Assembly: GCA_001788095.1 (NCBI GenBank)
Contig: MFZX01000029.1
Span: forward strand, 4,620 to 68,619
Length of the DNA: 64,000 nt
Reading direction: 5' to 3'
Source: Candidatus Roizmanbacteria bacterium RIFCSPHIGHO2_12_FULL_37_23
GTDB taxonomy: Bacteria; Patescibacteriota; Microgenomatia; UBA1406; HO2-37-13b
Positions 1,367 through 59,346 of the stretch are shown piece after piece (position 1 is the stretch's first letter; each line of letters starts with the position of its first letter). Both the position numbers and the translations under genes were made by a program. Under the pieces are notes generated by a model. The model was not told the DNA's origin. It did no database searches and saw nothing but the letters and a program-made list of their open reading frames with translations.

Positions 1367-2572
1367 ATGGTGTTTCAATTTCTCAAAAATACATTTCATA
1401 TTTTCGAATGCTTAGCAGCAGATATTTTCTATGGATTTCCAGGTAGGAAGTTGACGATAATTGGTGTCACAGGAACGGATGGAAAGACTACTACAGTACA
1501 TCTTATATATCATATTCTTAAGTCTGTAGGAAAACCAGTTTCAATGATTTCATCCATCTACGCAGACATTGGAGGTAAGATTGCCGAAACCGGTTTTCAT
1601 GTGACAACTCCAAGACCGTGGCAAGTTCGTAGATATCTTAAGAGTGCTCGTGAAGCAGGCTCAACACATTTTGTTTTAGAAACGACATCCCACGCCATAG
1701 AACAAAATAGGATATGGGGAATCAACTTTGCGACATCTGTAATCACAAATGTTTCGCATGAGCACCTTTACCATCATAAGTCATTAGAGAATTATATAAA
1801 GATAAAGACTAGCTTACTAATTCATTCTCGAGAAGCCCTCATTAATAAAGATACTCAATCTTTCGATAAAATAACGGAAATATTACAAAATCAAAAGAAA
1901 GATTATAAAACTTTTTCATTAAAAAATAGTGATGCTGATTTTACGTGGAATTCAAAAATCAAGACAAAGATTAAAGGTGACTTCAATAAAGAAAACATCC
2001 TTGCCGCTTATAGCATATGTCTAACACTGGGAATGACTCAAAGGGAAATTATGAACGCAATCACCTCGTTTGAGCTTCCAAAAGGTCGTCTTGAAAGAGT
2101 GTACGACAGAGATTTTAAAGTTATTATTGATTTTGCACATACTCCCCATGCTCTTGAGAGACTTTTAGAGACTGTAAGAAAGGAATTTATCAAAAAAAAC
2201 GGTCGTATTATTCATGTCTTTGGGGCAGCTAGTGAAAGAGATGATTCTAAGCGCCCAGAAATGGGAGAAGCAAGTGGGAAATATGCCGATATTATCATAT
2301 TGACAGAAGAAGACTATAGAAAGGAAAATATTATTACGATCTGTGATCAAATAGCACAAGGACTAAAAGGATATAAGTTTATTAAGGATAAGAATTACTT
2401 CGTAATTGCAGATAGATCGGATGCCATAGAAAAAGCAGTAATGATGGCGAAAAAAGGTGATGCTGTTGTTGTTACAGGAAAAAGTCACGAGAGGAGTCTC
2501 AATAGGGGAGGAAAAGAATATCCATGGGATGAATATAAAGCAGTTAGAAAAGCGTTGATTCTTAAGAAATGA
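1367..2572 (+). CDS. Mur ligase family protein, MurE-like (UDP-MurNAc-tripeptide synthetase-like), lacking the usual N-terminal domain
   Basis: P-loop GVTGTDGKTTT lies only about 35 aa from the start. MurE-like motifs: ETTSHAIEQNR, TNVSHEHLYHH, DFAHTPHALE, FGAASERDDSKRPEMG, TGKSHE. Length is 401 aa versus about 490 for typical MurE. Confidence 0.75.
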   Translation: MVFQFLKNTFHIFECLAADIFYGFPGRKLTIIGVTGTDGKTTTVHLIYHILKSVGKPVSMISSIYADIGGKIAETGFHVTTPRPWQVRRYLKSAREAGSTHFVLETTSHAIEQNRIWGINFATSVITNVSHEHLYHHKSLENYIKIKTSLLIHSREALINKDTQSFDKITEILQNQKKDYKTFSLKNSDADFTWNSKIKTKIKGDFNKENILAAYSICLTLGMTQREIMNAITSFELPKGRLERVYDRDFKVIIDFAHTPHALERLLETVRKEFIKKNGRIIHVFGAASERDDSKRPEMGEASGKYADIIILTEEDYRKENIITICDQIAQGLKGYKFIKDKNYFVIADRSDAIEKAVMMAKKGDAVVVTGKSHERSLNRGGKEYPWDEYKAVRKALILKK

Positions 2573-3345
2573 AGATTAAATTCATTACCCTAAACATTTT
2601 ACATGGTGGGGAATTGCTTGATTCTATCTTGGAGTTTTTGAATAAGGAAGATCCTGATATTATCGCTCTTCAAGAAGTCTGTGAAAGCAAAGATTTGAGC
2701 TTACCAAAAAATTTGAGAACTACGAGTGTTTTAACTGAATACTATAAAAATTACACTCTCAAATTTGCACCTGAACAACTCTGGATAAAAGAAGGTAACG
2801 TCGAGATTGGAAACGCAATATTATCAAAATTTCCTATTATTTCTCACAAAATCGAATTTTTTGATGTTAAATACGGTTATTATCCTGAATCACCTGAAAA
2901 GACTGATTTTTCAAAAGATCCACAAAACTTACAACACATAGAAATCGATATTCATGGGACTACGTTTAACATCATTAATGTTCATGGAATTTGGGGTTTC
3001 GATGGAGAAGATAATCCGCGAAGAGACGTTATGAGTAGTGTAATTACAAGAAGAATTAAAAATCTTTCTAATGTTATATTATCGGGCGATTTTAATACTC
3101 GACCGCATACTCATGCAATAAAAAACATTGAACATTACCTTAGAAACATATTTAAAGATGAACTAAAAACTACATTCAATGTCCCGCGACGGCTTAAAAA
3201 CATTCATAAACAGAATGAAACAGGTTACGCATCATCTGTTGTAGATATGATATTTATGAGCCCCCAATTAAAAATTGTTGACCATTACTGTCCTGCAGTA
3301 GATGTTTCTGATCATCTTCCTCTGGTTGCTATACTAGAGATATGA
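2569..3345 (+). CDS. Endonuclease/exonuclease/phosphatase (EEP) family protein, paralog 1
   Basis: N-terminal LNILHG...DIIALQEV and C-terminal SDHLPL are typical EEP catalytic motifs. The start overlaps the upstream stop (ATGA, 4 nt). Confidence 0.75.
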   Translation: MKIKFITLNILHGGELLDSILEFLNKEDPDIIALQEVCESKDLSLPKNLRTTSVLTEYYKNYTLKFAPEQLWIKEGNVEIGNAILSKFPIISHKIEFFDVKYGYYPESPEKTDFSKDPQNLQHIEIDIHGTTFNIINVHGIWGFDGEDNPRRDVMSSVITRRIKNLSNVILSGDFNTRPHTHAIKNIEHYLRNIFKDELKTTFNVPRRLKNIHKQNETGYASSVVDMIFMSPQLKIVDHYCPAVDVSDHLPLVAILEI

Positions 3346-4019
3346 TTATATTTGATCCTCGAAATAGGGTATATATATCGTCAAAATTACGAGACACGGG
3401 ATATACTTCAAGTTTTGGGACACGGTTAAGTAGAAATCCTCAAAATCATAGAATTGTCATGAAGCAGGTACATGGTGATAAAATCGTGAAAATTACAGCA
3501 CAGAATATAGATCGAGAAAAGTTTCAGAACACAGATGGAATGATAACTCGATTGAACGGTGTAACACTAATAGTCAAAACTGCAGACTGCGTTCCAATAA
3601 TTTTTGCTGATACCTTATCGAGTATCTTGGGTGTTTCGCATCAAGGATGGAGAGGAACACTACTGAATTTACCTCTGAAGATGGTTAATTTTTTGGCTAA
3701 AGAAGGGGTTCAGAAAGAGAATATTATTGTTGCAATTGGCCCGTCAATAAGCGCCTGCTGTTACAAAATATATGGAGATAGATTAGATCTATTTAGAAAG
3801 ACATTTCCTCGTTATGTAGACAGAATTTTTATAAAGAACAACAATGATATATTTCTAAACTTGGGATACCTTGCATATCTGCAACTCGTGGATGCAGGCA
3901 TACAAAAAAATAATATTGACTACTTTCCATTTTGTACAAGTTGTCACAAAGATCACTTTTATTCGTATAATAGAGATAAGTCTACAAAGCGGATGGAGAG
4001 TTGGATTGCTAAGTATTAG
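3342..4019 (+). CDS. pgeF: YfiH/PgeF family (DUF152, peptidoglycan editing factor / laccase-domain) protein
   Basis: Family motifs: QVHGDKIV, KTADCVPIIF, SHQGWRG and CCY in the C-terminal half. 4-nt overlap with the upstream gene. Confidence 0.8.
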   Translation: MIIFDPRNRVYISSKLRDTGYTSSFGTRLSRNPQNHRIVMKQVHGDKIVKITAQNIDREKFQNTDGMITRLNGVTLIVKTADCVPIIFADTLSSILGVSHQGWRGTLLNLPLKMVNFLAKEGVQKENIIVAIGPSISACCYKIYGDRLDLFRKTFPRYVDRIFIKNNNDIFLNLGYLAYLQLVDAGIQKNNIDYFPFCTSCHKDHFYSYNRDKSTKRMESWIAKY

Positions 4020-4050: not shown

Positions 4051-5463
4051 ATGCAAAATATTTATCTTGTCGGCATAAAAGGTGTTGGGATGACAGCTCT
4101 TGCTACATACTTAAAAGAGTGTGGAAATAATGTATGGGGCTCGGACATTCAAGATAAATTTCCTACAGATGAAGTTTTGCACGAGCAGCATATTAAAGTT
4201 CTCAAAGGGTTTTCGCCAAAAAATATTACTAATAATATTGACTTAGTTGTTACTACAGGAGCTCACGGAGGTCTTACAAATATAGAAGTCTTAACAGCAC
4301 AAGAGAAAGGTGTAAAAGTCATGACACTAGCAGAAGAAGTTGGACAACTGATGGATGGGTATGAAACAAAAATTACCATATGTGGTTCTCATGGAAAAAC
4401 AACAACAACGTCACTTATTTCTTTCATATTGAGGCAACTTAGATTGTCATCGAGCCACCTTGTCGGAACATCTAAATTTTCTGGTTATTATGGGGGATCT
4501 TTTGGAGGATCTGATTATTTGGTTGTTGAAGGAGACGAGTATGTTTCATCTCTAGGAACTGATAGTACTCCCCGCTTCATGTACCAGAGTCCTGATTATA
4601 TTATTTGTACGAATATCGATTTTGATCACCCTGATGTATATAAAGATATCAATGCAGTAAAAAAGGTTTTTGTTGATTTTTTTAAAAAGTTAAAAAAGAA
4701 TCCTAAGGGGAGATTGATTTACTGCATAGATGATGTCGCATTGCGTAGGCTTGCAGAAGTTCTTCCTGAGGAAAAACGGATGTCATACGGTTTTTCTGAA
4801 GATGCCGACCTCGTATTGCACTTCATGCATACAGAGGAATTTCAAAGAGCAGTTTTTAGTGCGCGATTACATGGTGAACATCTTGGTGTTTTTAAATTAC
4901 CATTCTTGGGTCATCACAATGTTCAAAACGCAGGTTCTGCCATTGCGCTATCTATCTTACTATCGCTTGATCTCACAAAAGTGAAGTCTGCAATCGCTTT
5001 GTTTAAAGGACTATCGCGACGACTAGAGTTAATCTATAAAAAGAACAATATATATCTCTTCGACGATTATGCACATCATCCAAGAGAGATTAGAGCATTG
5101 CTTGAAGCTGTTCGAGAAAAGTTTCCGAGATCTCGAAGGATTTTAGTTTTCCAGCCCCATACATACACTCGAACAAAGATGCTTCTCAATGATTTTGTAC
5201 ATGCGCTAGGAGATGCTGATAAATCATATGTTATTGATATTTTTGCATCTGCTCGAGAAAAGACTGATGGGAAAATTACATCAAAAGATTTAGAAGTAAA
5301 AGCAAACCAGATGCATATTAAAACCATCTCGTATGTATCGGATAAAAAAATAATGAGCGAACTCGCAAAAGAGCTTAAAAGAGGTGATGTTGTTATTACA
5401 GCAGGCGCAGGTGATGTGTATAAATTACATGAAGGAATAATAAGCGTCATGAATAAGTCATAA
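4051..5463 (+). CDS. murC: UDP-N-acetylmuramate--L-alanine ligase
   Basis: N-terminal GIKGVGMTALA Rossmann motif typical of MurC. P-loop GSHGKTTTT. DDYAHHPREI. Confidence 0.9.
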   Translation: MQNIYLVGIKGVGMTALATYLKECGNNVWGSDIQDKFPTDEVLHEQHIKVLKGFSPKNITNNIDLVVTTGAHGGLTNIEVLTAQEKGVKVMTLAEEVGQLMDGYETKITICGSHGKTTTTSLISFILRQLRLSSSHLVGTSKFSGYYGGSFGGSDYLVVEGDEYVSSLGTDSTPRFMYQSPDYIICTNIDFDHPDVYKDINAVKKVFVDFFKKLKKNPKGRLIYCIDDVALRRLAEVLPEEKRMSYGFSEDADLVLHFMHTEEFQRAVFSARLHGEHLGVFKLPFLGHHNVQNAGSAIALSILLSLDLTKVKSAIALFKGLSRRLELIYKKNNIYLFDDYAHHPREIRALLEAVREKFPRSRRILVFQPHTYTRTKMLLNDFVHALGDADKSYVIDIFASAREKTDGKITSKDLEVKANQMHIKTISYVSDKKIMSELAKELKRGDVVITAGAGDVYKLHEGIISVMNKS

Positions 5464-6428: not shown

Positions 6429-7778
6429 ATGGATAATAGTGAGGATTCATTTATCGTCAGAGGAGGGAAGCCGTTGAAGGGACAAATACAGCTTTCAGGA
6501 GCTAAGAATGTTGCATTGAAAGTACTTATTGCAGCATTGCTTTTTGATAGTCCCATCACCTTCAAAAATATTCCTCGCATCAGAGACATCAATGAATTAC
6601 TCCATCTTATAAACAAACTTGGAGCACAAGCCGATTTTACTGATTCGAATACCGTGGTGGTTGATAGTCATGGACTCTCTTCAGATACTATTGATCTTTT
6701 GCATGCGGCAAAAATTAGAGCTTCTTTTATGTTTTTTGCTCCCCTACTATACCGTTTTGGTAAAGCTTTTATTCCTAATCCTGGAGGATGCAGGCTCGGA
6801 GCTCGGCCCATAGATAGGCATATTAGTATGCTTCAAGCGTTTGGAGTAAAGGTAACATATAATTCTGAAACGGGCTTTTATGAATCACAACTCAATGGTA
6901 ATTCTATCAGAGGCACAACATTTACGTTTGACAAACCAACACACACAGGAACAGAATTGGCTATAATGCTTGCATCCCGCGCAGATGGCGAATCTGTGAT
7001 TAAGAATGCTGCTCAAGAACCAGAAATCGATGATCTTATTAACTTGCTCAATCAGGCTGGAGCACACATAAAAAGAGAAAACGGCTCGGTTTTAATAAAA
7101 GGAACACCAATTCTGCATTATAAAAATGATTCCTTCACCATTATGGTGGATAGAAATGAAGCTCCTACTTTTGCATCATTTGGAATAACAACAAGAGGTG
7201 ATATCATGATTTACGGTATAAAAGAAAGTGACATTGAGTATTTTGCAACTGAGATAAAAAATATTGGCGCAGGTGTAGAAGTTTTACCTGAAGGTATACG
7301 ATTTTACTATAAAGGTGAGTTAAAAAGTAGTAGTATTACGACAGGACCGCATCCAGGATTTATGACCGATTGGCAGGGTCCATGGGCTGTGATGATGACA
7401 CAGGCACATGGTGTTTCTACAATCCATGAAACGATATTTGAAGATCGGTTTGGATATGTCTCCGAACTCCAAAAACTCGGTGCTGACATAGAATTTTATC
7501 AGCCAGAATTAGATAATCCAAGGAAAATTTACCAATTTAATATTGAGAATGATGATAATTTGAAGTCGCTACAACAAGCTATTCGTATAAAAGGACCAAC
7601 TCAATTGCATAATGGAGTTATGGATGTTAAAGATCTCCGCGCTGGAGCGACAATACTTATCGCTGCCTGTAGCGCAGAAGGTGAATCTGTCATAAATGGA
7701 GCATCAATTATAGATAGGGGCTATGAAGACATAGAGAGAAAGTTACAGAGTTTAGGGGCAGCTATTAAACGCGTGTGA
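6429..7778 (+). CDS. murA: UDP-N-acetylglucosamine 1-carboxyvinyltransferase
   Basis: GAKNVALKVLIAALL. The catalytic Cys loop is PGGCRLGARPID. Length 449 aa. Confidence 0.9.
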   Translation: MDNSEDSFIVRGGKPLKGQIQLSGAKNVALKVLIAALLFDSPITFKNIPRIRDINELLHLINKLGAQADFTDSNTVVVDSHGLSSDTIDLLHAAKIRASFMFFAPLLYRFGKAFIPNPGGCRLGARPIDRHISMLQAFGVKVTYNSETGFYESQLNGNSIRGTTFTFDKPTHTGTELAIMLASRADGESVIKNAAQEPEIDDLINLLNQAGAHIKRENGSVLIKGTPILHYKNDSFTIMVDRNEAPTFASFGITTRGDIMIYGIKESDIEYFATEIKNIGAGVEVLPEGIRFYYKGELKSSSITTGPHPGFMTDWQGPWAVMMTQAHGVSTIHETIFEDRFGYVSELQKLGADIEFYQPELDNPRKIYQFNIENDDNLKSLQQAIRIKGPTQLHNGVMDVKDLRAGATILIAACSAEGESVINGASIIDRGYEDIERKLQSLGAAIKRV

Positions 7779-8479
7779 ATATTTCCGTTGTATCTTGGAA
7801 TATTTTAAAAGGAGAGCGATATGATGAAATTCTTCAGGGACTTAAGGAACTCAACGCCGATGTCTTTGGACTTCAGGAGGTTGCTGTTTGGAAAGATAAT
7901 AGAGGAAACGTCGGAGAAAAATTAGCACAGGAACTTGGATACCATCTTTATTTTTGTCCTGCATTGCCATCTCAACAGTCGGGAAGACCATACGATCTGG
8001 GAAACGCAATTCTTTCACGTTTTGAATGTAAAAACCAAGTATGTCATCAATTGAGTCCTGCTGATTTATATGGTGATGATTGGACTACAGAGCCGAGAAA
8101 TGCAGTTGAAGTAGGGATGAATAGTAATGAAACAGATGTTCGTGTCATAAATACACATGTTTATTATCCCCGATATGGAGGGAAGTCTGAAATTAGCGAA
8201 ATGCACTTTCGCAATCTCGATGCTTTACTCTCGTACGAGAAAACTATTCTTGTTGGAGACTTTAACGCTACAATGAGTACAGAACCGATAAAAAAAATTA
8301 ACAAGATACTACCTAATGTTGACAGAGAAAACGAAGATTTTACCTTTATAGATAGGGAGCAGCAAAAAATGAAAATTGACCATATTTTTGTAAGTAAAGA
8401 TATAATAGTAAAAAGTTTTGAAGTTGTTGAGACCAAAGGATCAGATCACCTACCTATTAAAGTTGTGATTAAAGTATAA
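7775..8479 (+). CDS. Endonuclease/exonuclease/phosphatase (EEP) family protein, paralog 2
   Basis: WNILKG...DVFGLQEV and GSDHLPI motifs. Same architecture as the 2569-3345 protein. 4-nt overlap with the murA stop. Confidence 0.75.
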   Translation: MNISVVSWNILKGERYDEILQGLKELNADVFGLQEVAVWKDNRGNVGEKLAQELGYHLYFCPALPSQQSGRPYDLGNAILSRFECKNQVCHQLSPADLYGDDWTTEPRNAVEVGMNSNETDVRVINTHVYYPRYGGKSEISEMHFRNLDALLSYEKTILVGDFNATMSTEPIKKINKILPNVDRENEDFTFIDREQQKMKIDHIFVSKDIIVKSFEVVETKGSDHLPIKVVIKV

Positions 8480-8528: not shown

Positions 8529-9779
8529 CTAAGGTTGAATTTTCGGTTTTAATTTTCCTGAGTGTGGAAGGCTAGTATACACTGTCATTGCAGGCCAGAT
8601 AGTTGATTTTTCACCTACGAGTATTCCAGGCATTGTTGAAACACGTACTCCAAATGACGTTTGTTTCCCGCATATAACTCCTAATGCATGTTCGGTTGTA
8701 TTTATCTCTGATTTATCCATATAGCTTAAAATGGGTTTTCTATCCATTCGTTTATTCGCTGTAATAAATCCTGCTCCGAGACGAGAAAAAGATCCAATTA
8801 CTGAATCACCAATAAAACCATCACCATGAAAATGAACGTCCTCCATAATAATAGAGCGTGCAATATCTGCATGAATTCCAATCTGAGCATTTTTTCCTAT
8901 ATCACTATCACGGATTACAGAATGGTCTCCGATATACACATTTCTACCAATATATGTATGACCTTTTATATGAGCACCGTCTAAGATAATCGCACCATCA
9001 TCTATATAGGCCGTATCTTCAATAATTGCCGTTTTTGCAATACTTGCATTAGGGCTAATGTATCCTATTTTTGTAAGTGCAAGATGTGTGAAGAGTTCTA
9101 AAAGATGCCATGGGTATTTTAAAGTAGGAATATACTGCTCCTTTTCTATTTTATGCATAAGGACTTTTTTATCATGAGCATAATCTGAAATAGCTTCTTC
9201 ATATGCATACTGATGGGATGTGCGGTTTTTGAGAGAGTGGATGAAGTCAGGTTTGAAAAGAAATGCTGACGTTGAGCGATAATGTGATGGTTCAGTGCCG
9301 GCTCGAGGTTTTTCAATAATACTCTTAATTCTTTCGCCGTCAAGATCAAGAGCTCCATATTCGTGAATACCTTCCTCATATTTCGCAGGGATGAGCCCAT
9401 CGAGGTCTTCAGTATTAAAGCGATCAATTAATGTTTTAAAAAGATTTTTTTCAAGAATATGATATGCATTAGGAATAATAAAAGACTCGTTGATAAGATC
9501 TGCAGCACATAATAGAGCATTTCCTTGTCCTTTAGGACTATCCTGATAGGCATATTGAATGGTGACACCGAGGTCCTCGCCTTTTTGTAAGTGCGTAGTA
9601 ATTACCTTATCACCCTTAGGAACAACGATTACAAACTGATGAATTCCACATTCGCGAAGGTCCTCAATAACATATTCAATTAAGGGCCTTCCATAAAGAC
9701 GAGTCATCGCTTTATGTCCCAGTGTTTCCAGAGGGAAAAACCTTTTATTTGCACCTGCCACAAGAAGTACCGCTTGCAT
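8529..9779 (-). CDS. Sugar-phosphate nucleotidyltransferase with C-terminal left-handed beta-helix (GlmU-like/bifunctional)
   Basis: N-terminal LLVAGANKRF...GRPLIEYVIEDL nucleotidyltransferase fold. The C-terminal half has hexapeptide-like repeats (IGRNVYIGDHSVIRDSDIGKNAQIG). Confidence 0.6.
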   Translation of the reverse strand: MQAVLLVAGANKRFFPLETLGHKAMTRLYGRPLIEYVIEDLRECGIHQFVIVVPKGDKVITTHLQKGEDLGVTIQYAYQDSPKGQGNALLCAADLINESFIIPNAYHILEKNLFKTLIDRFNTEDLDGLIPAKYEEGIHEYGALDLDGERIKSIIEKPRAGTEPSHYRSTSAFLFKPDFIHSLKNRTSHQYAYEEAISDYAHDKKVLMHKIEKEQYIPTLKYPWHLLELFTHLALTKIGYISPNASIAKTAIIEDTAYIDDGAIILDGAHIKGHTYIGRNVYIGDHSVIRDSDIGKNAQIGIHADIARSIIMEDVHFHGDGFIGDSVIGSFSRLGAGFITANKRMDRKPILSYMDKSEINTTEHALGVICGKQTSFGVRVSTMPGILVGEKSTIWPAMTVYTSLPHSGKLKPKIQP

Positions 9780-12366: not shown

Positions 12367-13404
12367 ATGGCAATTTATTTACTCGTTTTTTTTATATCTT
12401 TCCTTGTTAATTTAGTTTTACTTATCCCTTTTATCAATTTATTGTACAAACTCAAATTTCAAAGGGCTTCTCAAGAAACACGAGACGCTTTTAACAAAAG
12501 AACGCCGATTTTCGATAAATTCCACAAACAAAAAGCAGGAACACCAGTTGGAGGTGGAATCCTCATAATTCTTACAACATTGTTCGGATTCACTTTATTT
12601 ATATTTTCCTTTGCCTTTATGGGAAAGGACATTGTATCTAATTATCAATCAATAACTTCTGAAATAAAAATTTTATTGTTTACGTTTCTATTTTTTTCCT
12701 TTTTAGGTCTCTATGATGATTTTAAAAAAATGTTCTTTTGGCGACAAGGATCCTTTTTTGGCCTTCGATTACGACATAAATTAATAATTGAATTACTATT
12801 GGCTACTATCGTTTCATATTGGATGTTTTCAGAACTCGACGTTAGTATTATCAACATACCTTACTTAGGGGTTTATGATCTTTCGTGGTGGTATATTCCT
12901 TTTGCAACATTTGTTATTGTTGCTTTTTCAAACGCTGTTAATATTTCCGATGGTCTTGATGGACTATCTAGTGGGGTGTTACTTATTGCACTTCTAGCCT
13001 TTTGGACGATATCTATATCTATACTAGACACTCCCTTATTAATATTTATTGCAGTATGGATAGGAGGACTTATTGCTTTTCTGTATTTTAATGTGTATCC
13101 AGCGCGACTTTTTTTGGGAGATACAGGAGCGCTATCATTTGGAGCAACTTTTGCTGTAATTGGACTCTTGCTTGGAAAAGTTTTTGCTCTGACTATTATC
13201 GGAGGCGTGTTCGTTGCGGAAATTCTTTCATCACTCATACAACTTGTATCAAAAAAATATCGAGGGAAAAAGCTTTTTCCTGTAGCTCCAATTCACCTAT
13301 GGCTTCAATATAAAGGATGGGAAGAACCTAAAATTGTTATGCGTGCTTGGGTCATCTCCATTCTCTTTGCCGTATTTGGACTTATGATTGCGTTTCTCAA
13401 GTAA
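12367..13404 (+). CDS. mraY: Phospho-N-acetylmuramoyl-pentapeptide transferase
   Basis: Polytopic membrane protein with NAVNISDGLDGL and LFLGDTGALSFG motifs. Confidence 0.9.
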   Translation: MAIYLLVFFISFLVNLVLLIPFINLLYKLKFQRASQETRDAFNKRTPIFDKFHKQKAGTPVGGGILIILTTLFGFTLFIFSFAFMGKDIVSNYQSITSEIKILLFTFLFFSFLGLYDDFKKMFFWRQGSFFGLRLRHKLIIELLLATIVSYWMFSELDVSIINIPYLGVYDLSWWYIPFATFVIVAFSNAVNISDGLDGLSSGVLLIALLAFWTISISILDTPLLIFIAVWIGGLIAFLYFNVYPARLFLGDTGALSFGATFAVIGLLLGKVFALTIIGGVFVAEILSSLIQLVSKKYRGKKLFPVAPIHLWLQYKGWEEPKIVMRAWVISILFAVFGLMIAFLK

Positions 13405-13433: not shown

Positions 13434-14780
13434 ATGATTTCGGCAAAAGAATTTGTATTTGTAGACTATAAACCAGATTGGCAAAAAGGTGAGATTTTCT
13501 TTACCTATTCAATTGACCTTGATGGGTCAACGCCAAAAACCTTTATTGAAAAACTTGAGCTTCCAAAACCAGTCGACATTAGCAAGATTTCGAATGTTAC
13601 TCTCAATAACATTCTCCAGAGTATTCATTTAGTTCTTGGAGTAAGTTATTATAAATTATTCGTTCCTCCAAAAATTTCAACTTCAAAATACACACTCACA
13701 AAGGAACAAGCACATTTTTGGGACATTCTTTATACAAAAGGATTAGGGGAATTTTTTTATAAGAATAAACTTGATTATCGCGGATTAATACACTTTCCTT
13801 TTGGTGATAATCCTTCGACTATTGATAGCAATACGCATCATCCTACGGATCGTTCACTCGTTACTCTTGGTGGGGGTAAGGACTCAATCGTTACATTAGA
13901 ACTTCTAAAGGAAAAGAATATAAATTTTGATCTTTTTTCTCTTAATATTTTTCCAGTACAAGAAAAAGTAGCAGCAATTGCTCAAAAAAAAGCTATGGTT
14001 GTTCGCAGGACGATCGACAAACAGATACTTGAGCTGAACCAAACGGGCCAGGTATATAACGGTCATGTTCCTATTTCTGCGATTTACGCATTTGTAGCCC
14101 TTCTATATGCTCTGCTGTACGATTATTCGTACATAGTTTTTTCAAATGAGAGAAGCAGTAATTATGGGAACATTACCTATTTAGATGAAGTTGTAAGCCA
14201 CCAATGGAGTAAGTCATTTGAATTCGAAATATTATTCTCAGAATATATAAAGATGTTTGTCTCTAAAGATGTGCAATACTTTTCTTTTATAAGACCATTT
14301 TATGAGATCAAAATTGCAGAAATTTTTACGCGCTTCCCACAATATTTTCAGACATTTTCAAGCAGTAATCATAATTTTAGAATAAACAAAAATAATAATT
14401 CACATCGGTGGGATTATTCATCAGCAAAGACCGTTTTTGTATTCTGTATTCTTTCCGCATTTCTCCCAAAAAAACACATGCTTGAGATATTCGATAAGAA
14501 TTTGTACAGCGAAAAAAGACTTATACCTATTTTCCAAGAACTCTTAGGAGAAGGAAACACGAAACCATTTGAATGCGTTGGAACTCCACAGGAAATGAAA
14601 GTTGCTTTATACAGAGCATATAGACGAGGAGAATATCTGAATGATTGTATTATGGAAGAATTAGAGGATAGATTGTTAAGTAATATTGAGAGCATCGCAC
14701 AAGCTGAGAGAGAAGTGTTTTCATATGGTAATGACAGTAATATCCCTGAGAAGTTTAAATCTATTATTCATGAAAATTGA
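13434..14780 (+). CDS. PP-loop (adenine nucleotide alpha-hydrolase-like) ATPase of unknown function
   Basis: The LGGGKDS motif (SGGxDS-type PP-loop) sits at about aa 145, followed by Rossmann-like alternation. No recognisable tRNA-modification C-terminal domain. The 3' end overlaps the murD start by 11 nt. Confidence 0.5.
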   Translation: MISAKEFVFVDYKPDWQKGEIFFTYSIDLDGSTPKTFIEKLELPKPVDISKISNVTLNNILQSIHLVLGVSYYKLFVPPKISTSKYTLTKEQAHFWDILYTKGLGEFFYKNKLDYRGLIHFPFGDNPSTIDSNTHHPTDRSLVTLGGGKDSIVTLELLKEKNINFDLFSLNIFPVQEKVAAIAQKKAMVVRRTIDKQILELNQTGQVYNGHVPISAIYAFVALLYALLYDYSYIVFSNERSSNYGNITYLDEVVSHQWSKSFEFEILFSEYIKMFVSKDVQYFSFIRPFYEIKIAEIFTRFPQYFQTFSSSNHNFRINKNNNSHRWDYSSAKTVFVFCILSAFLPKKHMLEIFDKNLYSEKRLIPIFQELLGEGNTKPFECVGTPQEMKVALYRAYRRGEYLNDCIMEELEDRLLSNIESIAQAEREVFSYGNDSNIPEKFKSIIHEN

Positions 14781-16011
14781 TGCTATTCGCGAATATAAAA
14801 AAATCCTTATTTTAGGATATGGTGTAGAAGGGAGATCTACAGAGAAATTTTTAAGAAAGTTTGCTCCAGATGTCACCATTGAAACAGCTGATCAAAAAGA
14901 TGGCCCAGATTACCTCGAAAAACAAAAATCATGCAACCTTGTAATTAAGTCACCAGGAATTCCTAAAAAGTTTGTAACAAAACCATACACAACTGCCACG
15001 AACATTTTTTTTGCAAACTCAAAATATAGAACTATTGGAATAACTGGTACAAAAGGAAAAAGTACAACAAGTCATTTGGTGCATAGTATTTTACGTAACG
15101 CGGGAAAAAGTTCAGAGTTGGCTGGAAATATCGGAGAACCAATGCTTGATCTTCTTTTAAGTGATATTGATGAGTCATCGATCATCGTTCTGGAATTGTC
15201 AAGCTATCAGTTGGAGGATATACAATATTCACCCCATGTTTCATGTATCCTTAATATTTATCAAGAACTACACAATCACGTATCCTTTGGAGCCTATTTT
15301 GAAGCAAAAGCTCAAATAGCTAAATACGCCTCGAAGAAAGATTATTATGTATATAACAGTGGTCAACTAGAACTTGAACAGCTGGTTTTTCATACAAAAG
15401 CTCAACCCGTAGCGTACAAGGACAATGATGAATCCGATATCGGACCTTTTTATCAATCTAATGTTTCAGCTTCTCTTACAGTAACCTCATTATTTGGTAT
15501 AAATCGAAATGCTGCGAGAGAAATAATTAGTCAAACAAAGCCGCTTCTTCATCGGCACCAATATGTCGGGATATTTAAAGGAATAAAATTTTATAACGAT
15601 TCTGCTGCAAATCATCCCGCTGCGACACTCCAAGCTCTCTCAAGAATTACGAATGTGAGTACAATCTTGTTAGGGGGACAAAACAGGGAGTATGATTTTC
15701 GAGACTTAGTAGAAAAACTTTTTGAATTACACATTGACAATATTGTACTTTTTCCTGATACTGAAATCGTTCTAGAAAAGTTAATCAATAAAAAGAGAGA
15801 ATATAGACCACGAATTTTTACAACAAACAATATGGAAGATGCGGTTGATTTTGCCTATAAACATAGTCCGTCGGGCACAGCATGTTTACTGTCTCCTGGA
15901 GCGCCTAGCTATACAATGTTTAGGAATTTCCCCGAGAGAGGAAATGAATTTATGAGGTGCGTAAAACAATATGAAGAAAAAGAAAAAAATCCTCAAAAAA
16001 CTTCAAATTGA
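14770..16011 (+). CDS. murD: UDP-N-acetylmuramoylalanine--glutamate ligase
   Basis: MKIDAIREYKKILILGYGVEGRS N-terminal Rossmann region. P-loop GITGTKGKSTT. SPGAPSYTMF near the C-terminus. The start is taken at the internal ATG 14770, because the 28-aa extension of the ORF track lies inside the upstream gene. Confidence 0.85.
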   Translation: MKIDAIREYKKILILGYGVEGRSTEKFLRKFAPDVTIETADQKDGPDYLEKQKSCNLVIKSPGIPKKFVTKPYTTATNIFFANSKYRTIGITGTKGKSTTSHLVHSILRNAGKSSELAGNIGEPMLDLLLSDIDESSIIVLELSSYQLEDIQYSPHVSCILNIYQELHNHVSFGAYFEAKAQIAKYASKKDYYVYNSGQLELEQLVFHTKAQPVAYKDNDESDIGPFYQSNVSASLTVTSLFGINRNAAREIISQTKPLLHRHQYVGIFKGIKFYNDSAANHPAATLQALSRITNVSTILLGGQNREYDFRDLVEKLFELHIDNIVLFPDTEIVLEKLINKKREYRPRIFTTNNMEDAVDFAYKHSPSGTACLLSPGAPSYTMFRNFPERGNEFMRCVKQYEEKEKNPQKTSN

Positions 16012-17074
16012 TCAAAAAAAACAGATAGGAACTCTTATTGGGGTGCCTTTACTACTCACTATTATTGGACTTTTTTTTATTTTTGAAGCATCATCGGTTA
16101 GTGCGTTTAGAGGTCTTGGAGATAGTTTTCATTACATGAAGCTTCAAATCATTTGGGCATCTCTGGGGTTTTTTATTATGATTTTCTTTTCTGTCTTCGA
16201 TTACCGTAAGCTTTACTATATATCCTTTCCTGCATTACTTATTTCAATAATATTTCTCATTCTTGTGCTTATACCAGGAATAGGAACCCATGTCGCGGGT
16301 GCGCGACGTTGGATAAGCCTGGGATCATTTACTTTTCAGCCTACAGAAGCTGCTAAGTTCTCTATTATTCTCTATTTATCTTCGTGGTTTTTGCATAAAG
16401 AAAGAGAGCGTTTTGTGTCGTTTTTATTACTTCTCCTTTTCATGATAGGTTTGATTATGGTGCAGCCAGATATGGGGACAGCTATCATTATTTTCTCGCT
16501 TTTTATTACAATATACTATTTTTCTGGCGAGTCACTAAAATATCTTTTTTTTCTTATTCCTATAGCTTTTGGAGGCTTTTTCTTTCTTATTGCAACATCA
16601 TCTTATCGTATGAGACGGCTAATGGCATACATAAATCCTAGTATTGACCCGGAAGGAATAGGTTACCATATCCGACAGATATTGATCTCGTTATCTGCCG
16701 GTGGAATTATAGGTAGAGGGTTTGCAAGCTCAAGGCAAAAATATCAATTTCTTCCTGAAGCTCATACTGACTCGATTTTCGCAATTATTGGTGAAGAGGT
16801 TGGTTTTATAGGCTCATTTATTCTTATAGTACTTTACTTAGTACTTATGTATACGCTTCTTAAGACTGCGAAACATGCAAAAGATCGATTTGGTAAATTA
16901 TTAGTAAGCTCAATATTTTGTCTTCTTTGTTTACAGCTTATTATTAATCTTGGTGGTATGGTAGGGTTAATTCCATTGACCGGTGTACCATTGCCGTTTA
17001 TTTCGTATGGAGGATCAAGTCTTTTAGTTTTCTATTCTCTCATTGGTATATCTATTAGCGTTGCTCGAAGATGA
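15971..17074 (+). CDS. ftsW: SEDS family peptidoglycan glycosyltransferase FtsW
   Basis: Polytopic membrane protein. SEDS motifs: QPTEAAKF, QPDMGTA, LPEAHTDSIFA, PLPFISYGGSS. Located between murD and murG. Confidence 0.85.
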   Translation: MKKKKKILKKLQIDQKKQIGTLIGVPLLLTIIGLFFIFEASSVSAFRGLGDSFHYMKLQIIWASLGFFIMIFFSVFDYRKLYYISFPALLISIIFLILVLIPGIGTHVAGARRWISLGSFTFQPTEAAKFSIILYLSSWFLHKERERFVSFLLLLLFMIGLIMVQPDMGTAIIIFSLFITIYYFSGESLKYLFFLIPIAFGGFFFLIATSSYRMRRLMAYINPSIDPEGIGYHIRQILISLSAGGIIGRGFASSRQKYQFLPEAHTDSIFAIIGEEVGFIGSFILIVLYLVLMYTLLKTAKHAKDRFGKLLVSSIFCLLCLQLIINLGGMVGLIPLTGVPLPFISYGGSSLLVFYSLIGISISVARR

Positions 17075-55798: not shown

Positions 55799-55872
55799 GG
55801 GCCTGTAGCTCAGCTGGCCAGAGCGCTCGGTTTGCATCCGAGAGGTCAGGGGTTCAAATCCCCTCGGGTCCA
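55799..55872 (+). tRNA. tRNA-Ala (anticodon TGC)
   Basis: Acceptor GGGCCTG/CGGGTCC with the G3:U70 identity pair, anticodon loop TTTGCAT, T loop TTCAAAT. Confidence 0.9.
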
Positions 55873-55924: not shown

Positions 55925-55951
55925 TCTTAAGTTTTGATTTGCGGGATATTG
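55925..55951 (+). other. 5' strand of 27-bp 23S processing stem
   Basis: TCTTAAGTTTTGATTTGCGGGATATTG pairs with 59320-59346 (CAATATCCCGCAAATTGAAACTTAAGA): 25 Watson-Crick pairs plus 2 G.U pairs. Confidence 0.8.
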
Positions 55952-56096
55952 TAATTAAAGCTAGTGGTGAATGCCTAGGTAATTTGAGCCGAGGAAGGAC
56001 GTGTGTATGGACACGATATCGTCGATAAGTCTCCTAACAGACATTACAATCGGCGGTTTCCCAATGGGATAACCCCACTGATAGTAATATCAGTGA

Positions 56097-56115
56097 CCCC
56101 CGATTTTATCGGGGG
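56097..56115 (+). repeat. rRNA hairpin repeat copy 1 (CCCCCGAT TTT ATCGGGGG)
   Basis: Seen directly. 8-bp stem, TTT loop variant. Confidence 0.9.
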
Positions 56116-56171
56116 AGGATACCTGGTGAACTGAAACATCTCAGTAACCGGAGGAAAAGAAATCAAAATGT

Positions 56172-56197
56172 CTCAATTAGACGCAAGTTTAGTTGAG
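56172..56197 (+). repeat. 26-nt hairpin with GNRA loop (CTCAATTAGAC GCAA GTTTAGTTGAG), apparent insertion in 23S domain I
   Basis: 11-bp stem (2 G.U pairs). It lies between GAAATCAA and CGAGATTCC, which are contiguous in the E. coli 23S as I recall it (GAAAUCAACCGAGAUUCC). Confidence 0.6.
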
Positions 56198-56200
56198 CGA

Positions 56201-56231
<31 letters not shown>

Positions 56232-56241
56232 GGAGCCTAAA

Positions 56242-56258
56242 CCCCGATTTAATCGGGG
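56242..56258 (+). repeat. rRNA hairpin repeat copy 2 (CCCCGAT TTA ATCGGGG)
   Basis: Exact 17-mer. Confidence 0.9.
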
Positions 56259-56542
56259 GGTTGCGGGAGTCTGCATACCTACACTTTTTTTCTAGATGAA
56301 TGTCATGGAAAGGACAACCAAAGAAAGTGATAGTCTTGTAGTTAAAAGAAGAAAAGTGTAAGCGGAATTTCCCAAGTACCACGGGACACGGAAAACCTTG
56401 TGGGAAGCTAGGGCGGTCATGCTCTAAGGCTAAATACTCAAATTAACCGATAGTGAACCAGTACCGTGAGGGAATGGTGAAAAGTCCCCCGGCGAGGGGA
56501 GTGAAATAGAACCTGAAACCGCTAGCTAACAAGCAGTGAGAG

Positions 56543-56559
56543 CCCCGATTTAATCGGGG
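56543..56559 (+). repeat. rRNA hairpin repeat copy 3 (CCCCGAT TTA ATCGGGG)
   Basis: Exact 17-mer. Confidence 0.9.
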
Positions 56560-56651
56560 TAATCGCGTGCCTATTGAAGAATGAGCCAGCGAGTTTTCAA
56601 GAGCTGCTTAAGGTTAACCAATAAAAAGTTGGGTAGCCATAGCGAAAGCAA

Positions 56652-56669
56652 TCCCACCGAAAGGCGGGA
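56652..56669 (+). repeat. Second hairpin family copy 1 (TCCCACC GAAA GGCGGGA)
   Basis: 20/21 identical to 56738-56758, including the AA prefix. One A/C mismatch in the stem. Confidence 0.8.
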
Positions 56670-56739
56670 ACGTCTGAATAGGGCGTTGGTAGCTTTTGAA
56701 AGACCCGAAACTGGGTGATCTAACCATGGGCAGGGTGAA

Positions 56740-56757
56740 TCCCGCCGAAAGGCGGGA
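56740..56757 (+). repeat. Second hairpin family copy 2 (TCCCGCC GAAA GGCGGGA)
   Basis: Perfect 7-bp stem with a GAAA tetraloop. Confidence 0.8.
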
Positions 56758-57147
56758 GGAAGCCCGAACCCGTTATCGGTGAAATGATATGGGATGACCT
56801 GTGGTTAGGGGTAATATGCTAATCGAACCCAGAGATAGCTGGTTCTCCCCGAGATATATTTAGGTATAGCCTTCCTGCTCATAAAACACCTGGGGTAAAG
56901 CACTGAATAGTCCAGAGAGTCTAGTACAATTTGGATTAATCAAACTCTGAATACAGTCGTGTTTTGGCGGGAGGAGTCAGACTCACTAGGATAAGCTAGC
57001 GTGGTCGAAAGGGAAACAGCCCAGACTCCCATCTAAGGTCTCTAAATGGTTATTAAGTGGGAAAGGTAGTGAGATTTCAAAGACAGCCGGGAGGTTGGCT
57101 TAGAAGCAGCCATCCTTTAAAGAAAGCGTAACAGCTCACCGTAATAG

Positions 57148-57164
57148 CCCCGATTTAATCGGGG
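57148..57164 (+). repeat. rRNA hairpin repeat copy 4 (CCCCGAT TTA ATCGGGG)
   Basis: Exact 17-mer. Net insertion relative to the recalled E. coli segment CACUGGUCGAGUCGGCCUGCGCGGAAG. Confidence 0.9.
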
Positions 57165-57573
57165 ATGAGGTCTTGCGCCGAAAATGATCGAGGCTTAAAT
57201 AATCTACCGAAGATGGAGATGCTTGTGCTTTGCACAAGTGTGGTAGGGGAGCGTCCCGTGTACGATGAAGATCTACCGTAAGGTGGGTTGGAGTTAACGG
57301 GAGTGAGAATGCTGGCATAAGTAGCGATTCTCCCGCTGAAAATGCGGGATGCCGTATGTCCAAGGTTTCCTCAGCAACGTACATCGGCTGAGGGTTAGTC
57401 GGATCTAAGGGCTCTGCCGATAGGCGAGTCTCGATGTCCAAGCTGTTAATATTCAGCTACTCTTTATAAAGCGTTACTACTTTTATACTAACGAAATCTG
57501 ATAATCGAAGCCTTCTATATGAGGGTCTAAATGGTAAGCACCACCAATTGGTGGGACCGAGCCATGAATGCGA

Positions 57574-57590
57574 CCCCGATTTTATTGGGG
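57574..57590 (+). repeat. rRNA hairpin repeat copy 5 (CCCCGAT TTT ATTGGGG)
   Basis: Variant with a TTT loop and one G.U pair. Confidence 0.85.
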
Positions 57591-57753
57591 GAGCTCGATG
57601 CGTTAAGTTTCCGGGAAAAGGTATAAAAGGAGTTTTATAAGGATCCGTACCGCAAACCAACACAGGTGGACTGGTAGAGTATACTAAGGCAATCGAGTAA
57701 TGGTGGTTCAAGGAACTCGGCAAATCAGCTGGACGTAACTTTGGAGATGTCCT

Positions 57754-57770
57754 TCCCGCCTTTGGCGGGA
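57754..57770 (+). repeat. Second hairpin family copy 3 (TCCCGCC TTT GGCGGGA)
   Basis: Same 7-bp stem as 56740-56757 with a different loop. Confidence 0.7.
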
Positions 57771-57980
57771 CACAGCAAATGATTTCCATCTAACTGTTTA
57801 CCAAAAACACAGCTCCCTGCAAACCGGAAACGGGAAGTATAGGGGGTGAGGCCTGTCCAGTGCCGGTAAGTTAAGGATCGGGGTTAATCCCGATATCACG
57901 AAAGTAATATCGGGAAAGGCTCTGATTCAAGCTCCGGTGAACGACAGCTCTAACTCTGAGAGTTCTAAGGTAGCGTAGTC

Positions 57981-58018
<38 letters not shown>

Positions 58019-58225
58019 TAAGATGGAAACTGTCTTGAACCATTGCTCGGCGAAATTGAAATGGCTGTGAAGATGCGGCCTTCCTGCACCAGGACAAGAA
58101 GACCCCGGGAGCTTTACTGAAGCTTATTATTGACAAGAAATTATTAACTGTCTAGCGTAGGAGGGAGTTTTGGCAGCAATGCCGGACACCAATGAAACAC
58201 CTCTCTTTGATAATTTTGAGTCTTA

Positions 58226-58242
58226 CCCCGATTTAATCGGGG
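58226..58242 (+). repeat. rRNA hairpin repeat copy 6 (CCCCGAT TTA ATCGGGG)
   Basis: Exact 17-mer. Confidence 0.9.
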
Positions 58243-58446
58243 GACAGTAGTAGGTGGTCAGTTTAACTGGGGCGGTTTCCTCCAAAAGGGTAACGGAGGA
58301 GCGCAAAGGTTGGCTTTTTCCGGATGGAAATCGGAATGTACGTGTAAACGCATAAGCCAGCTTAACTGTGAGGAATACAATCCGAGCAGATCCGAAAGGA
58401 GGCGTTAGTGATCCCCCGATCGGTTATGATTACCGGTGGGGCTTAT

Positions 58447-58477
<31 letters not shown>

Positions 58478-58625
58478 GGTCTCCCCTAAGAGTTCACATC
58501 GACGGGGAGGTTCGGCACCTTATGAGCCAAATAATTGGGGTGCCTTCAGTAGCAATACTGATAAAAAAATGTGACTTATAACGGTGGACTCCATAAATGC
58601 CCGATGATAGAATATCATCGTTATT

Positions 58626-58797
58626 ATGGACAATACCGTGGGAAGTCTAACTCGAGCTCAAAAATCTGTTATCATAGGGTCTATTCTTGGAGATGGCTAA
58701 TTTTAGAATTCGTTTTCTAAAATCTAGCTTACCAAGATTACATGATCTTATTGGTAAAAATCTTATACCTTCAATGAAGTATAAACTTGAGTTATGA
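58626..58797 (+). pseudogene. Decayed LAGLIDADG homing endonuclease ORF
   Basis: ATG at 58626 gives MDNTVGSLTRAQKSVIIGSILGDG then a stop. A +1 shift continues NFRIRFLKSSLPRLHDLIGKNLIPSMKYKLEL then a stop. Only the first LAGLIDADG motif region survives. Confidence 0.55.
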
Positions 58798-58811
58798 CCC
58801 CGTAGAGACTT

Positions 58812-58828
58812 CTCCGATTTAATCGGGG
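58812..58828 (+). repeat. rRNA hairpin repeat copy 7 (CTCCGAT TTA ATCGGGG), inside the intron
   Basis: Variant with CTCC on the 5' strand (one G.U pair). It lies just downstream of the endonuclease remnant. Confidence 0.85.
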
Positions 58829-58985
58829 AGAGTTCAATAAAAAATTGAGCTAATACGTCACCCCCAGATTTCAGATATCTGGGTGAAGATATAGTCCGCG
58901 CCATTAGTAATAATGGATTATCATGCGATGTCGGCTCATCGCATCCTGGGGCCGTAGCAGGTCCCAAGGGTTGGTCTGTTCGCCC

Positions 58986-59033
<48 letters not shown>

Positions 59034-59216
59034 ACTCTATCCGGTGCAGGCGTTTGGATTCTTGAAAAGGCTCTTCTCTAGTACGAGAGGACCGAGAAGA
59101 GGGAATCCCTGGTGTATCAGTTGTCCTATAAGGGCATTGCTGAGTAGCTATATTCCTATGAGATAAGTACTGAAAGCATCTCAAGTACGAAGCTTACTTT
59201 AAGATGAGGAATCCAC

Positions 59217-59233
59217 CCCCGATTTAATCGGGG
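59217..59233 (+). repeat. rRNA hairpin repeat copy 8 (CCCCGAT TTA ATCGGGG)
   Basis: Exact 17-mer near the 23S 3' end. Confidence 0.9.
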
Positions 59234-59319
59234 ATAAATCCCCCGGTAGATGACCGGGTTGATAGGCGCATGGTGTAAGTCCAGTAATGGATTTAGCCTA
59301 TGCGTACTAATGGATGATT

Positions 59320-59346
59320 CAATATCCCGCAAATTGAAACTTAAGA
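59320..59346 (+). other. 3' strand of 27-bp 23S processing stem
   Basis: Complementary to 55925-55951. Confidence 0.8.

Follow-up and report, generated by a model that had tools for sequence, protein, structure and literature searches.

A putative MurL-type epimerase gene overlapping a MurD2-type ligase gene in the cell wall cluster of a Candidatus Roizmanbacteria bacterium

We analysed a 64-kb stretch of DNA (the window; positions 4,620 to 68,619 of contig MFZX01000029.1, assembly GCA_001788095.1) from a Candidatus Roizmanbacteria bacterium, a member of the Patescibacteria or candidate phyla radiation (CPR), whose mur and division and cell wall (dcw) gene cluster is otherwise ordinary. Between mraY and murD in this cluster lies an open reading frame (ORF) of 448 residues carrying the PP-loop motif LGGGKDS, and this gene and the ligase gene that follows it are considered here. 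The original prediction had placed the ORF in this position, with its stop codon overlapping the murD start by 11 nucleotides, and had proposed that it encodes an epimerase of the MurL type. Position and overlap could both be read directly in the sequence, with the neighbours identified by PF00953 and TIGR01087. The features on which the argument depends are as follows, in positions of the window.

13434..14780, plus strand: murL-like ORF with ATG start, 448 residues, assigned by NF041275, the MurL Pfam domains, identity to the Xanthomonas sacchari protein and the AlphaFold2 model
13866..13886, plus strand: PP-loop LGGGKDS, residues 145-151, the predicted site for the pyrophosphate moiety of ATP
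14364..14432, plus strand: region of the replaced cysteines (S311, D327, S330, T333), from alignment with the family pattern C-x15-C-x2-C-x2-C
14562..14585, plus strand: KPFECVGT motif, residues 377-384, which holds Cys381, a candidate catalytic residue
14770..14780, plus strand: murL/murD overlap of 11 nucleotides, murL TGA at 14778-14780 and murD ATG at 14770
14770..16011, plus strand: murD, putative MurD2-type ligase, TIGR01087 237 bits, specificity residues aligned
12367..13404, plus strand: mraY, upstream in the same operon-like array, Pfam PF00953 Glycos_transf_4, E 2.8e-32
15971..17074, plus strand: ftsW, downstream and overlapping the end of murD, PF01098 on the public gene call and the ORF list

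The 3' end of murL reads TCT ATT ATT CAT GAA AAT TGA with the murD ATG inside it, and we read the overlap as probable translational coupling. From this ATG the murD product begins MKIDAIREYKKILILGYG, which lines up with the N-termini of its orthologues. A TTG at 14686 was considered as an alternative murD start and rejected, as the orthologue alignment and the public gene calls, in which the product has 413 residues, favour the ATG. The peptidoglycan and division genes of the window encode an FtsI-like penicillin-binding protein, MurE, PgeF, MurC, MurB, MurA, MraY, FtsW, MurG, an FtsQ-like protein, FtsA and FtsZ. Because this set is encoded, the cell makes peptidoglycan and needs D-glutamate (D-Glu).

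Against NCBIfam the 448-residue protein matched NF041275 (MurL_Xanthmoales), the model for UDP-N-acetyl-alpha-D-muramoyl-L-alanyl-L-glutamate epimerase, almost from end to end, with residues 4-446 aligned to model positions 7-444 of 447 at E 1.1e-100 and 337 bits. As a control we used the murL-murD pair of X. sacchari (L088), taken from a 508-kb record (NZ_CP010410.1) of a plasmid collection. The MurL of this pair scored 836 bits and so exceeded the equivalog cut-off (700 bits) of what is a Xanthomonadales-specific model, and BLASTP of the window protein against it gave 35% identity over 385 residues (E 3e-76), so that homology to a bona fide MurL is established. Precomputed Pfam domains on the identical protein are PF26299 MurL_N and PF26298 MurL_epimerase_C; our search of Pfam-A returned no match for the ORF, the copy used being one without MurL models. 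The exact sequence is deposited as OGK15282.1 and under other Candidatus Roizmanbacteria accessions, with the GenBank name ‘hypothetical protein’ and a UniRef label, from UniProt automatic annotation, that reads UDP-N-acetyl-alpha-D-muramoyl-L-alanyl-L-glutamate epimerase. It occurs on at least 24 public contigs, and the window matches contig MFZE01000027.1 of GCA_001787915.1. A large protein database holds 5533 homologues at E<=1e-5, which together with the identical copies shows that the ORF is not a chance one; those listed likewise bear precomputed PF26299 and PF26298, and the MurL family counts 3535 clusters at 50% identity at E<=1e-3 and 1608 at E<=1e-30.

Other PP-loop families were tried and set aside. 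TtcA was the sole other NCBIfam match, at E 0.083 over 36 residues around the PP-loop, and TtuA was returned by a PDB sequence search at E 0.58 over 53 residues only. Neither NCBIfam nor Pfam-A gave a QueC or TilS family match, and profile searches of the protein against the same two collections gave none to Dph6. The original prediction had named a confident match to TilS, QueC or a Dph6-like family as grounds for giving up the epimerase proposal; no such match appeared, and on the sequence evidence above the proposal is supported.

Conservation was assessed in an alignment of 82 MurLs, 81 of them from Patescibacteria (80 GTDB loci and the window) and one from X. sacchari. Forty-six positions carry the consensus residue in at least 80 of the 82 proteins, and the window protein departs from it only at four cysteines, to which we return below, and at N255 (N255S). 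The positions conserved at this level include G147-S151, H211, P213, H256, Q257, K260, R287, E291, K377, P378, C381, V382, G383 and E387, all of them present in the window, and K377, P378, C381, V382 and G383 are invariant in the Patescibacteria (81/81) and found also in X. sacchari and in a Pseudonocardia paralogue described below. Compared directly with Xanthomonas MurL, the window protein has the same length and two-domain architecture, can be aligned over its full length, and shares the PP-loop, H211, HQWSK, R287, E291 and KPFECVG.

The AlphaFold2 model of the protein (mean predicted local distance difference test score, pLDDT, 90.8; predicted template modelling score, pTM, 0.92) has three parts. 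An N-terminal beta/alpha domain of about residues 1-125 is followed by a central alpha/beta domain, in which strand 138-144 leads into the PP-loop and then helix 149-160, and by a helical C-terminal part that bears KPFECVGT. An SGGxDS-type motif thus stands at the start of a Rossmann-like alpha/beta domain, as is characteristic of the PP-loop superfamily, and LGGGKDS aligns with SGGKDS of TtuA. Foldseek against the PDB returned for the central domain PP-loop ATP pyrophosphatases only (3k32, QueC 3bl5, TtuA, Cap9, YcfA, argininosuccinate synthase, NMN synthetase and ThiI), and the best single-domain matches (3k32, QueC 3bl5 and Cap9) had a probability of 1.00 and target-normalised template modelling scores of ~0.5-0.57 over ~175-195 aligned columns. 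No solved MurL structure was found by Foldseek against the PDB or by the PDB sequence search, which gave marginal PP-loop matches only. Members of the PP-loop superfamily adenylate carboxyl or carbonyl groups with release of pyrophosphate, and for this reason the fold provides a rationale for ATP-to-AMP chemistry. Judged from the model, the catalytic core of MurL would be a PP-loop ATPase of the QueC/TtuA type, which fits adenylation of the alpha-carboxylate of glutamate.

The neighbouring ligase was examined for the chirality of its substrate. The window MurD scores 237 bits against TIGR01087 (cut-off 212), and the X. sacchari MurD2 scores above the cut-off too; TIGR01087 cannot tell MurD from MurD2, and a ‘D-glutamate ligase’ match is therefore uninformative on chirality. 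The published determinants are more discriminating. Asp182, Lys348, Ala414 and Leu416 of Escherichia coli MurD correspond to Glu197, Arg358, Pro433 and Phe435 of X. oryzae MurD2, in which Glu197 and Arg358 set the specificity for L-glutamate (L-Glu); an E197D/R358K double mutant turns the X. oryzae enzyme to D-Glu, and K319T makes E. coli MurD accept L-Glu (PMC8788868). When the window MurD is aligned with those of E. coli and X. sacchari (MurD2), E. coli positions 182, 319, 348, 414 and 416 are occupied by E166, A279, R306, P379 and Y381 in the window enzyme and by E206, I339, R367, P443 and F445 in that of X. sacchari. The two thus share Glu for Asp182, Arg for Lys348, Pro for Ala414, an aromatic residue for Leu416 and a residue other than Lys at 319; they differ in that the window enzyme has Tyr for Phe at 416 and Ala for Ile at 319, is some 65 residues shorter, and has no equivalent of His183, a deletion found besides only in its nearest relative.

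The same residues were then tallied in the MurDs that adjoin MurL in the Patescibacteria loci together with the window MurD. Position 182 is Glu in 61 and Asp in 17, position 319 is never Lys (Ile in 68), position 348 is Arg in 75/75 sequences having a residue there, position 414 is Pro in 70, and position 416 is Tyr in 67 and Phe in 5, while the motifs FPEH, D[SA]ISTTP, DRG and PS[YF] are nearly identical to those of Xanthomonas. The canonical MurDs in the comparison (E. coli and three PDB chains, n=4) have Lys319 and Ala414. Judged by these published residues, the ligase of the window belongs to the MurD2, or L-Glu-adding, type. A D-Glu-specific MurD, which the original prediction had listed, in combination with a canonical murI, as evidence against itself, is thus not what the chirality residues point to, and since the partner ligase has an L-Glu-type signature an epimerase would be necessary.

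Linkage between the two genes extends far beyond this locus. A scan of one genome per GTDB species gave at least 600 pattern matches and at least 590 confirmed relatives, of which the best 80 loci were analysed. All of these are Patescibacteria-like, with record titles that include Roizman-, Levy-, Woese-, Staskawicz-, Taylor-, Moran-, Uhr-, Falkow-, Kerfeld- and Sungbacteria as well as Peregrini-/Peribacteria, Gracilibacteria and Saccharimonadia. In 78 Patescibacteria loci a murD was found; it follows murL immediately and in the same orientation in 75 of these, and in 25 of those 75 (L014, L018, L019, L021, L022, L026 and 19 more) the two genes occupy one reading frame. The fusions, MurL at the N-terminus and MurD at the C-terminus, run to ~800-890 residues (865 in P0136), and in P0136, P0148 and the L014 frame NF041275 and TIGR01087 both match a single chain. 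Such fusions found no mention in the open-access literature that we searched on the MurD2/MurL pathway. In X. sacchari, too, murL precedes murD, with an overlap of 20 nucleotides, bearing out the adjacency that the original prediction had stated for Xanthomonas; there as in the window the gene lies directly 5' of, and overlaps, that of a MurD2-type ligase. The settings differ in that the window pair stands in the dcw cluster between mraY and ftsW and the X. sacchari pair beside lysA-type genes. Taken together, fusion, conserved adjacency, and the same order and overlap in Xanthomonas lend strong and independent support to a joint function of MurL and MurD.

Two observations on the records themselves should be added here. 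Several metagenome-assembled genomes whose murL-murD loci are of the CPR type (L003, L004, L008, L010, L011, L012, L020, L031 and others) have been filed under ‘uncultured Gammaproteobacteria’, ‘Pseudomonadales’, ‘Weeksellaceae’ or ‘Bacillota’, automatic labels that are probably wrong. The X. sacchari record NZ_CP010410.1 (508,653 bp, ‘plasmid unnamed’) encodes a bifunctional aspartate kinase/diaminopimelate decarboxylase along with murL and murD and is typed as non-mobilizable. Rather than a plasmid, it appears to be a chromid or part of a chromosome.

The biochemistry of MurL has been reported for enzymes of Xanthomonas, Micromonospora and Salinispora; the characterised enzyme consumes one ATP with release of AMP and works in the L-to-D direction only, and its discoverers proposed adenylation of the alpha-carboxylate while stating that the protein ‘lacks known conserved domains’ (PMC8788868). 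By analogy with the Xanthomonas enzyme, the window MurL and its putatively coupled ligase would form a two-step alternative route to peptidoglycan D-Glu. One ATP, bound by the PP-loop of the QueC-like alpha/beta domain, would serve to adenylate the terminal L-Glu at its alpha-carboxylate. The C-alpha proton, made more acidic in this way, could be taken off and put back on the other face, with hydrolysis of the acyl-adenylate to follow. Cys381 of KPFECVGT, His211, His256 and Lys260 are candidates for the acid/base (or thioester) residues. Both this route and MurI with a canonical MurD would leave D-Glu as the second residue of the stem peptide. The racemase MurI, which needs no cofactor and works with two thiols, converts free glutamate in a reversible reaction that consumes no ATP, whereas epimerisation by the window route is predicted to follow ligation, to cost one ATP and to be irreversible, and the window holds no MurI homologue. 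The UniRef name and the Pfam domains already classify the sequence. A clear relative of MurL beside the matching ligase gene, it represents a pathway that is known, if seldom noticed, rather than a novel type of enzyme. On sequence grounds the protein is an uncharacterised member of the MurL family, and the novelty lies in the host group, CPR bacteria, in which this known pathway is here predicted from genes.

We consider it likely that the protein functions as a MurL in concert with a ligase of the MurD2 type. Several observations weigh against this and should be set out together. The 337-bit score is far under the 700-bit cut-off, as are those of ten other CPR homologues (285-403 bits), so equivalog-level membership by the NCBI cut-off is not reached, the model being tuned to Xanthomonadales. 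Unlike Xanthomonas MurL, the window protein also lacks the four cysteines of SSCNRNF...WCGxCPKC (C-x15-C-x2-C-x2-C), which are present as CCCC in 80/80 GTDB Patescibacteria loci and in X. sacchari, and has S311, D327, S330 and T333 in their place. In the ligase, the missing equivalent of E. coli His183 reflects a one-residue deletion (~residues 164-172): the region reads YQE-LH-NH in the window MurD and its nearest relative (L086, 4811-6052), FPEHLD-WH in X. sacchari and FPEHMD-YH or similar in other CPR enzymes.

Two further points concern the supply of D-Glu and the substrate. With E. coli MurI and IlvE as queries, phmmer found no MurI-like or IlvE-like ORF in the 64-kb window and 80 related loci (~0.9 Mb), and the absence of murI or a D-amino-acid transaminase covers this much sequence only. 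A paper whose title is cited in PMC11974145 (Environ Microbiol 2024, e16621) reports glutamate racemase activity for Ca. Saccharimonas aalborgensis, a CPR bacterium; given this report and the wide occurrence of murL-murD, CPR bacteria as a whole would use both routes. Lastly, three Pseudonocardia plasmids (NZ_CP011869.1, pLS1-1; NZ_CP010991.1; NZ_CP052772.1) encode MurL-like ‘hypothetical proteins’ of 27-29% identity. The pLS1-1 gene (L089, 3878-5287) has no adjoining murD and keeps the PP-loop, the four cysteines and KPLECVG, and its product may be a paralogue with another substrate. Since such murD-unlinked paralogues exist, membership of the MurL family alone does not fix the substrate, and for the window protein this is argued from synteny and the MurD2 signature instead.

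The missing cysteines can be placed in a wider comparison. Among the 120 best homologues the CxxCxxC motif is missing in 28, which fall in a single clade of a neighbour-joining tree; these are diverged (43-55% identity) and have the PP-loop and KPxxCxG intact, the latter motif being kept in 120/120 of the closest homologues. NF041275 scores are 346-403 bits for Cys-containing homologues and 285-337 for Cys-less ones, and close Cys-less relatives (L086, L087) retain the array CofD-DAGK-MraY-MurL-MurD-FtsW-MurG. QueC holds zinc with a C...CxxCxxC site, which the Cys4 pattern of typical MurLs presumably resembles, and the family site is probably a metal site. As the Cys-less clade keeps all else, including synteny, these sequences suggest that the site is structural and dispensable.

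These same facts bear on whether the window gene is a decaying, non-catalytic remnant. Under that reading the host, or a murI or D-amino-acid transaminase encoded outside the window, would supply D-Glu, which the MurD would use directly. Loss of a Cys4 site conserved elsewhere, the score under the equivalog cut-off and the active racemase reported for at least one CPR bacterium would all agree with such decay. Yet the reading frame is intact, AlphaFold2 models the protein with confidence, and the Cys-less form is common to 28 diverged homologues with PP-loop and KPxxCxG, with mraY-murL-murD synteny kept in Cys-less relatives; the MurD residues, moreover, are MurD2-type and not D-Glu-type, and no MurI-like or IlvE-like ORF lies within the window. 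We regard a remnant as very unlikely. An unrelated PP-loop enzyme of tRNA modification (TilS, TtcA/TtuA, ThiI or QueC type), placed in the dcw cluster by chance, would account for the marginal SGGxDS-like matches to TtuA and TtcA and for the presence of TtuA and ThiI among the fold matches. This is scarcely credible. Those sequence matches span only ~50 residues at the PP-loop, and neither a tRNA-binding domain nor a substrate domain of these families was detected; MurL is matched over the full length at E 1e-100, and murD is linked or fused in 75/78 loci.

A different chemistry was also considered. A QueC-like PP-loop enzyme might adenylate a carboxylate of the UDP-N-acetylmuramoyl (UDP-MurNAc) peptide and pass it to ammonia or another nucleophile, yielding for example iso-glutamine with no epimerisation, and the loss of the Cys4 site would mark the change. 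The closest folds do include QueC and other carboxylate-adenylating PP-loop enzymes of amidotransferase type, one Joint Genome Institute (JGI) record names a homologue QueC, and the window protein belongs to a distinct Cys-less clade and has a partner MurD that deviates at the His183 position. However, what is shared with QueC (PDB 3bl5), TtuA, 3k32, Cap9 and argininosuccinate synthase is the alpha/beta nucleotide-binding core, and the match to QueC and other PP-loop enzymes is limited to these ~190 residues; QueC-type enzymes have nothing equivalent to the N-terminal MurL_N or to the helical C-terminal domain with KPFECVG, and both the substrate and the predicted outcome, epimerisation, differ from those of QueC. 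Homology to MurL runs the full length while the QueC family is unmatched in NCBIfam and Pfam, the non-cysteine residues shared with Xanthomonas MurL are all kept except N255S, an L-Glu-type partner ligase requires an epimerase, and no glutaminase or GatD-like partner adjoins the gene. An amidating enzyme, which the original prediction had held in reserve, thus gained no positive support, and amidation is in our view very unlikely. Little probability attaches, likewise, to the idea that in this Roizmanbacteria clade, with its Cys-less MurL and His183-less MurD, the chemistry has drifted from that of Xanthomonas towards a different position-2 residue, such as an amidated or otherwise modified Glu or another amino acid; if true, the drifted pair would be a new peptidoglycan-precursor modification by a QueC-like fold.

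Some features of the surrounding cluster and of the rest of the window are recorded here as side observations. MurE (1367-2572, plus strand) has 401 residues, its TIGR01085 match begins at model position 70, and from the alignment the usual N-terminal domain appears to be missing. Two Exo_endo_phos genes (2569-3345 and 3342-4019) and the gene for PgeF, the peptidoglycan editing factor (7775-8479, TIGR00726), all on the plus strand, are interspersed with murE, murC, murB and murA. The sole minus-strand gene of the cluster, at 8529-9779, encodes an archaeal-type bifunctional sugar-1-phosphate nucleotidylyltransferase/acetyltransferase, which scores 236 bits against TIGR03992 Arch_glmU, under the cut-off, and matches bacterial GlmU poorly. 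Further along, the 23S rRNA gene (55944-59329, plus strand) measures 3386 nucleotides against 2925 in the Rfam model and so has an insertion of ~460 nucleotides, such insertions being typical of CPR rRNA genes. A tRNA gene lies just 5' of it at 55799-55872, and no 16S or 5S rRNA gene was detected in the whole 64-kb window.

The MurD2/MurL route has been described as limited to a few proteobacterial and actinobacterial genera, with low-similarity MurL orthologues listed for cyanobacteria, a fungus and an amoeba (PMC8788868), and in the searchable open-access literature we found no mention of MurL together with Patescibacteria or CPR. Our data, which include at least 590 confirmed stretches, suggest that the murL-murD pair occurs widely among Patescibacteria, beyond the narrow range of the published accounts. 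They also suggest a PP-loop ATPase core for MurL, a departure from the published view of a protein with no known conserved domains, and the Cys-less clade offers a natural experiment on the need for the cysteine site. In these genomes the GenBank label ‘D-glutamate ligase’ on the neighbouring MurD is probably wrong, and metabolic reconstructions that score CPR bacteria as negative for D-Glu synthesis may be overlooking the MurD2/MurL route.

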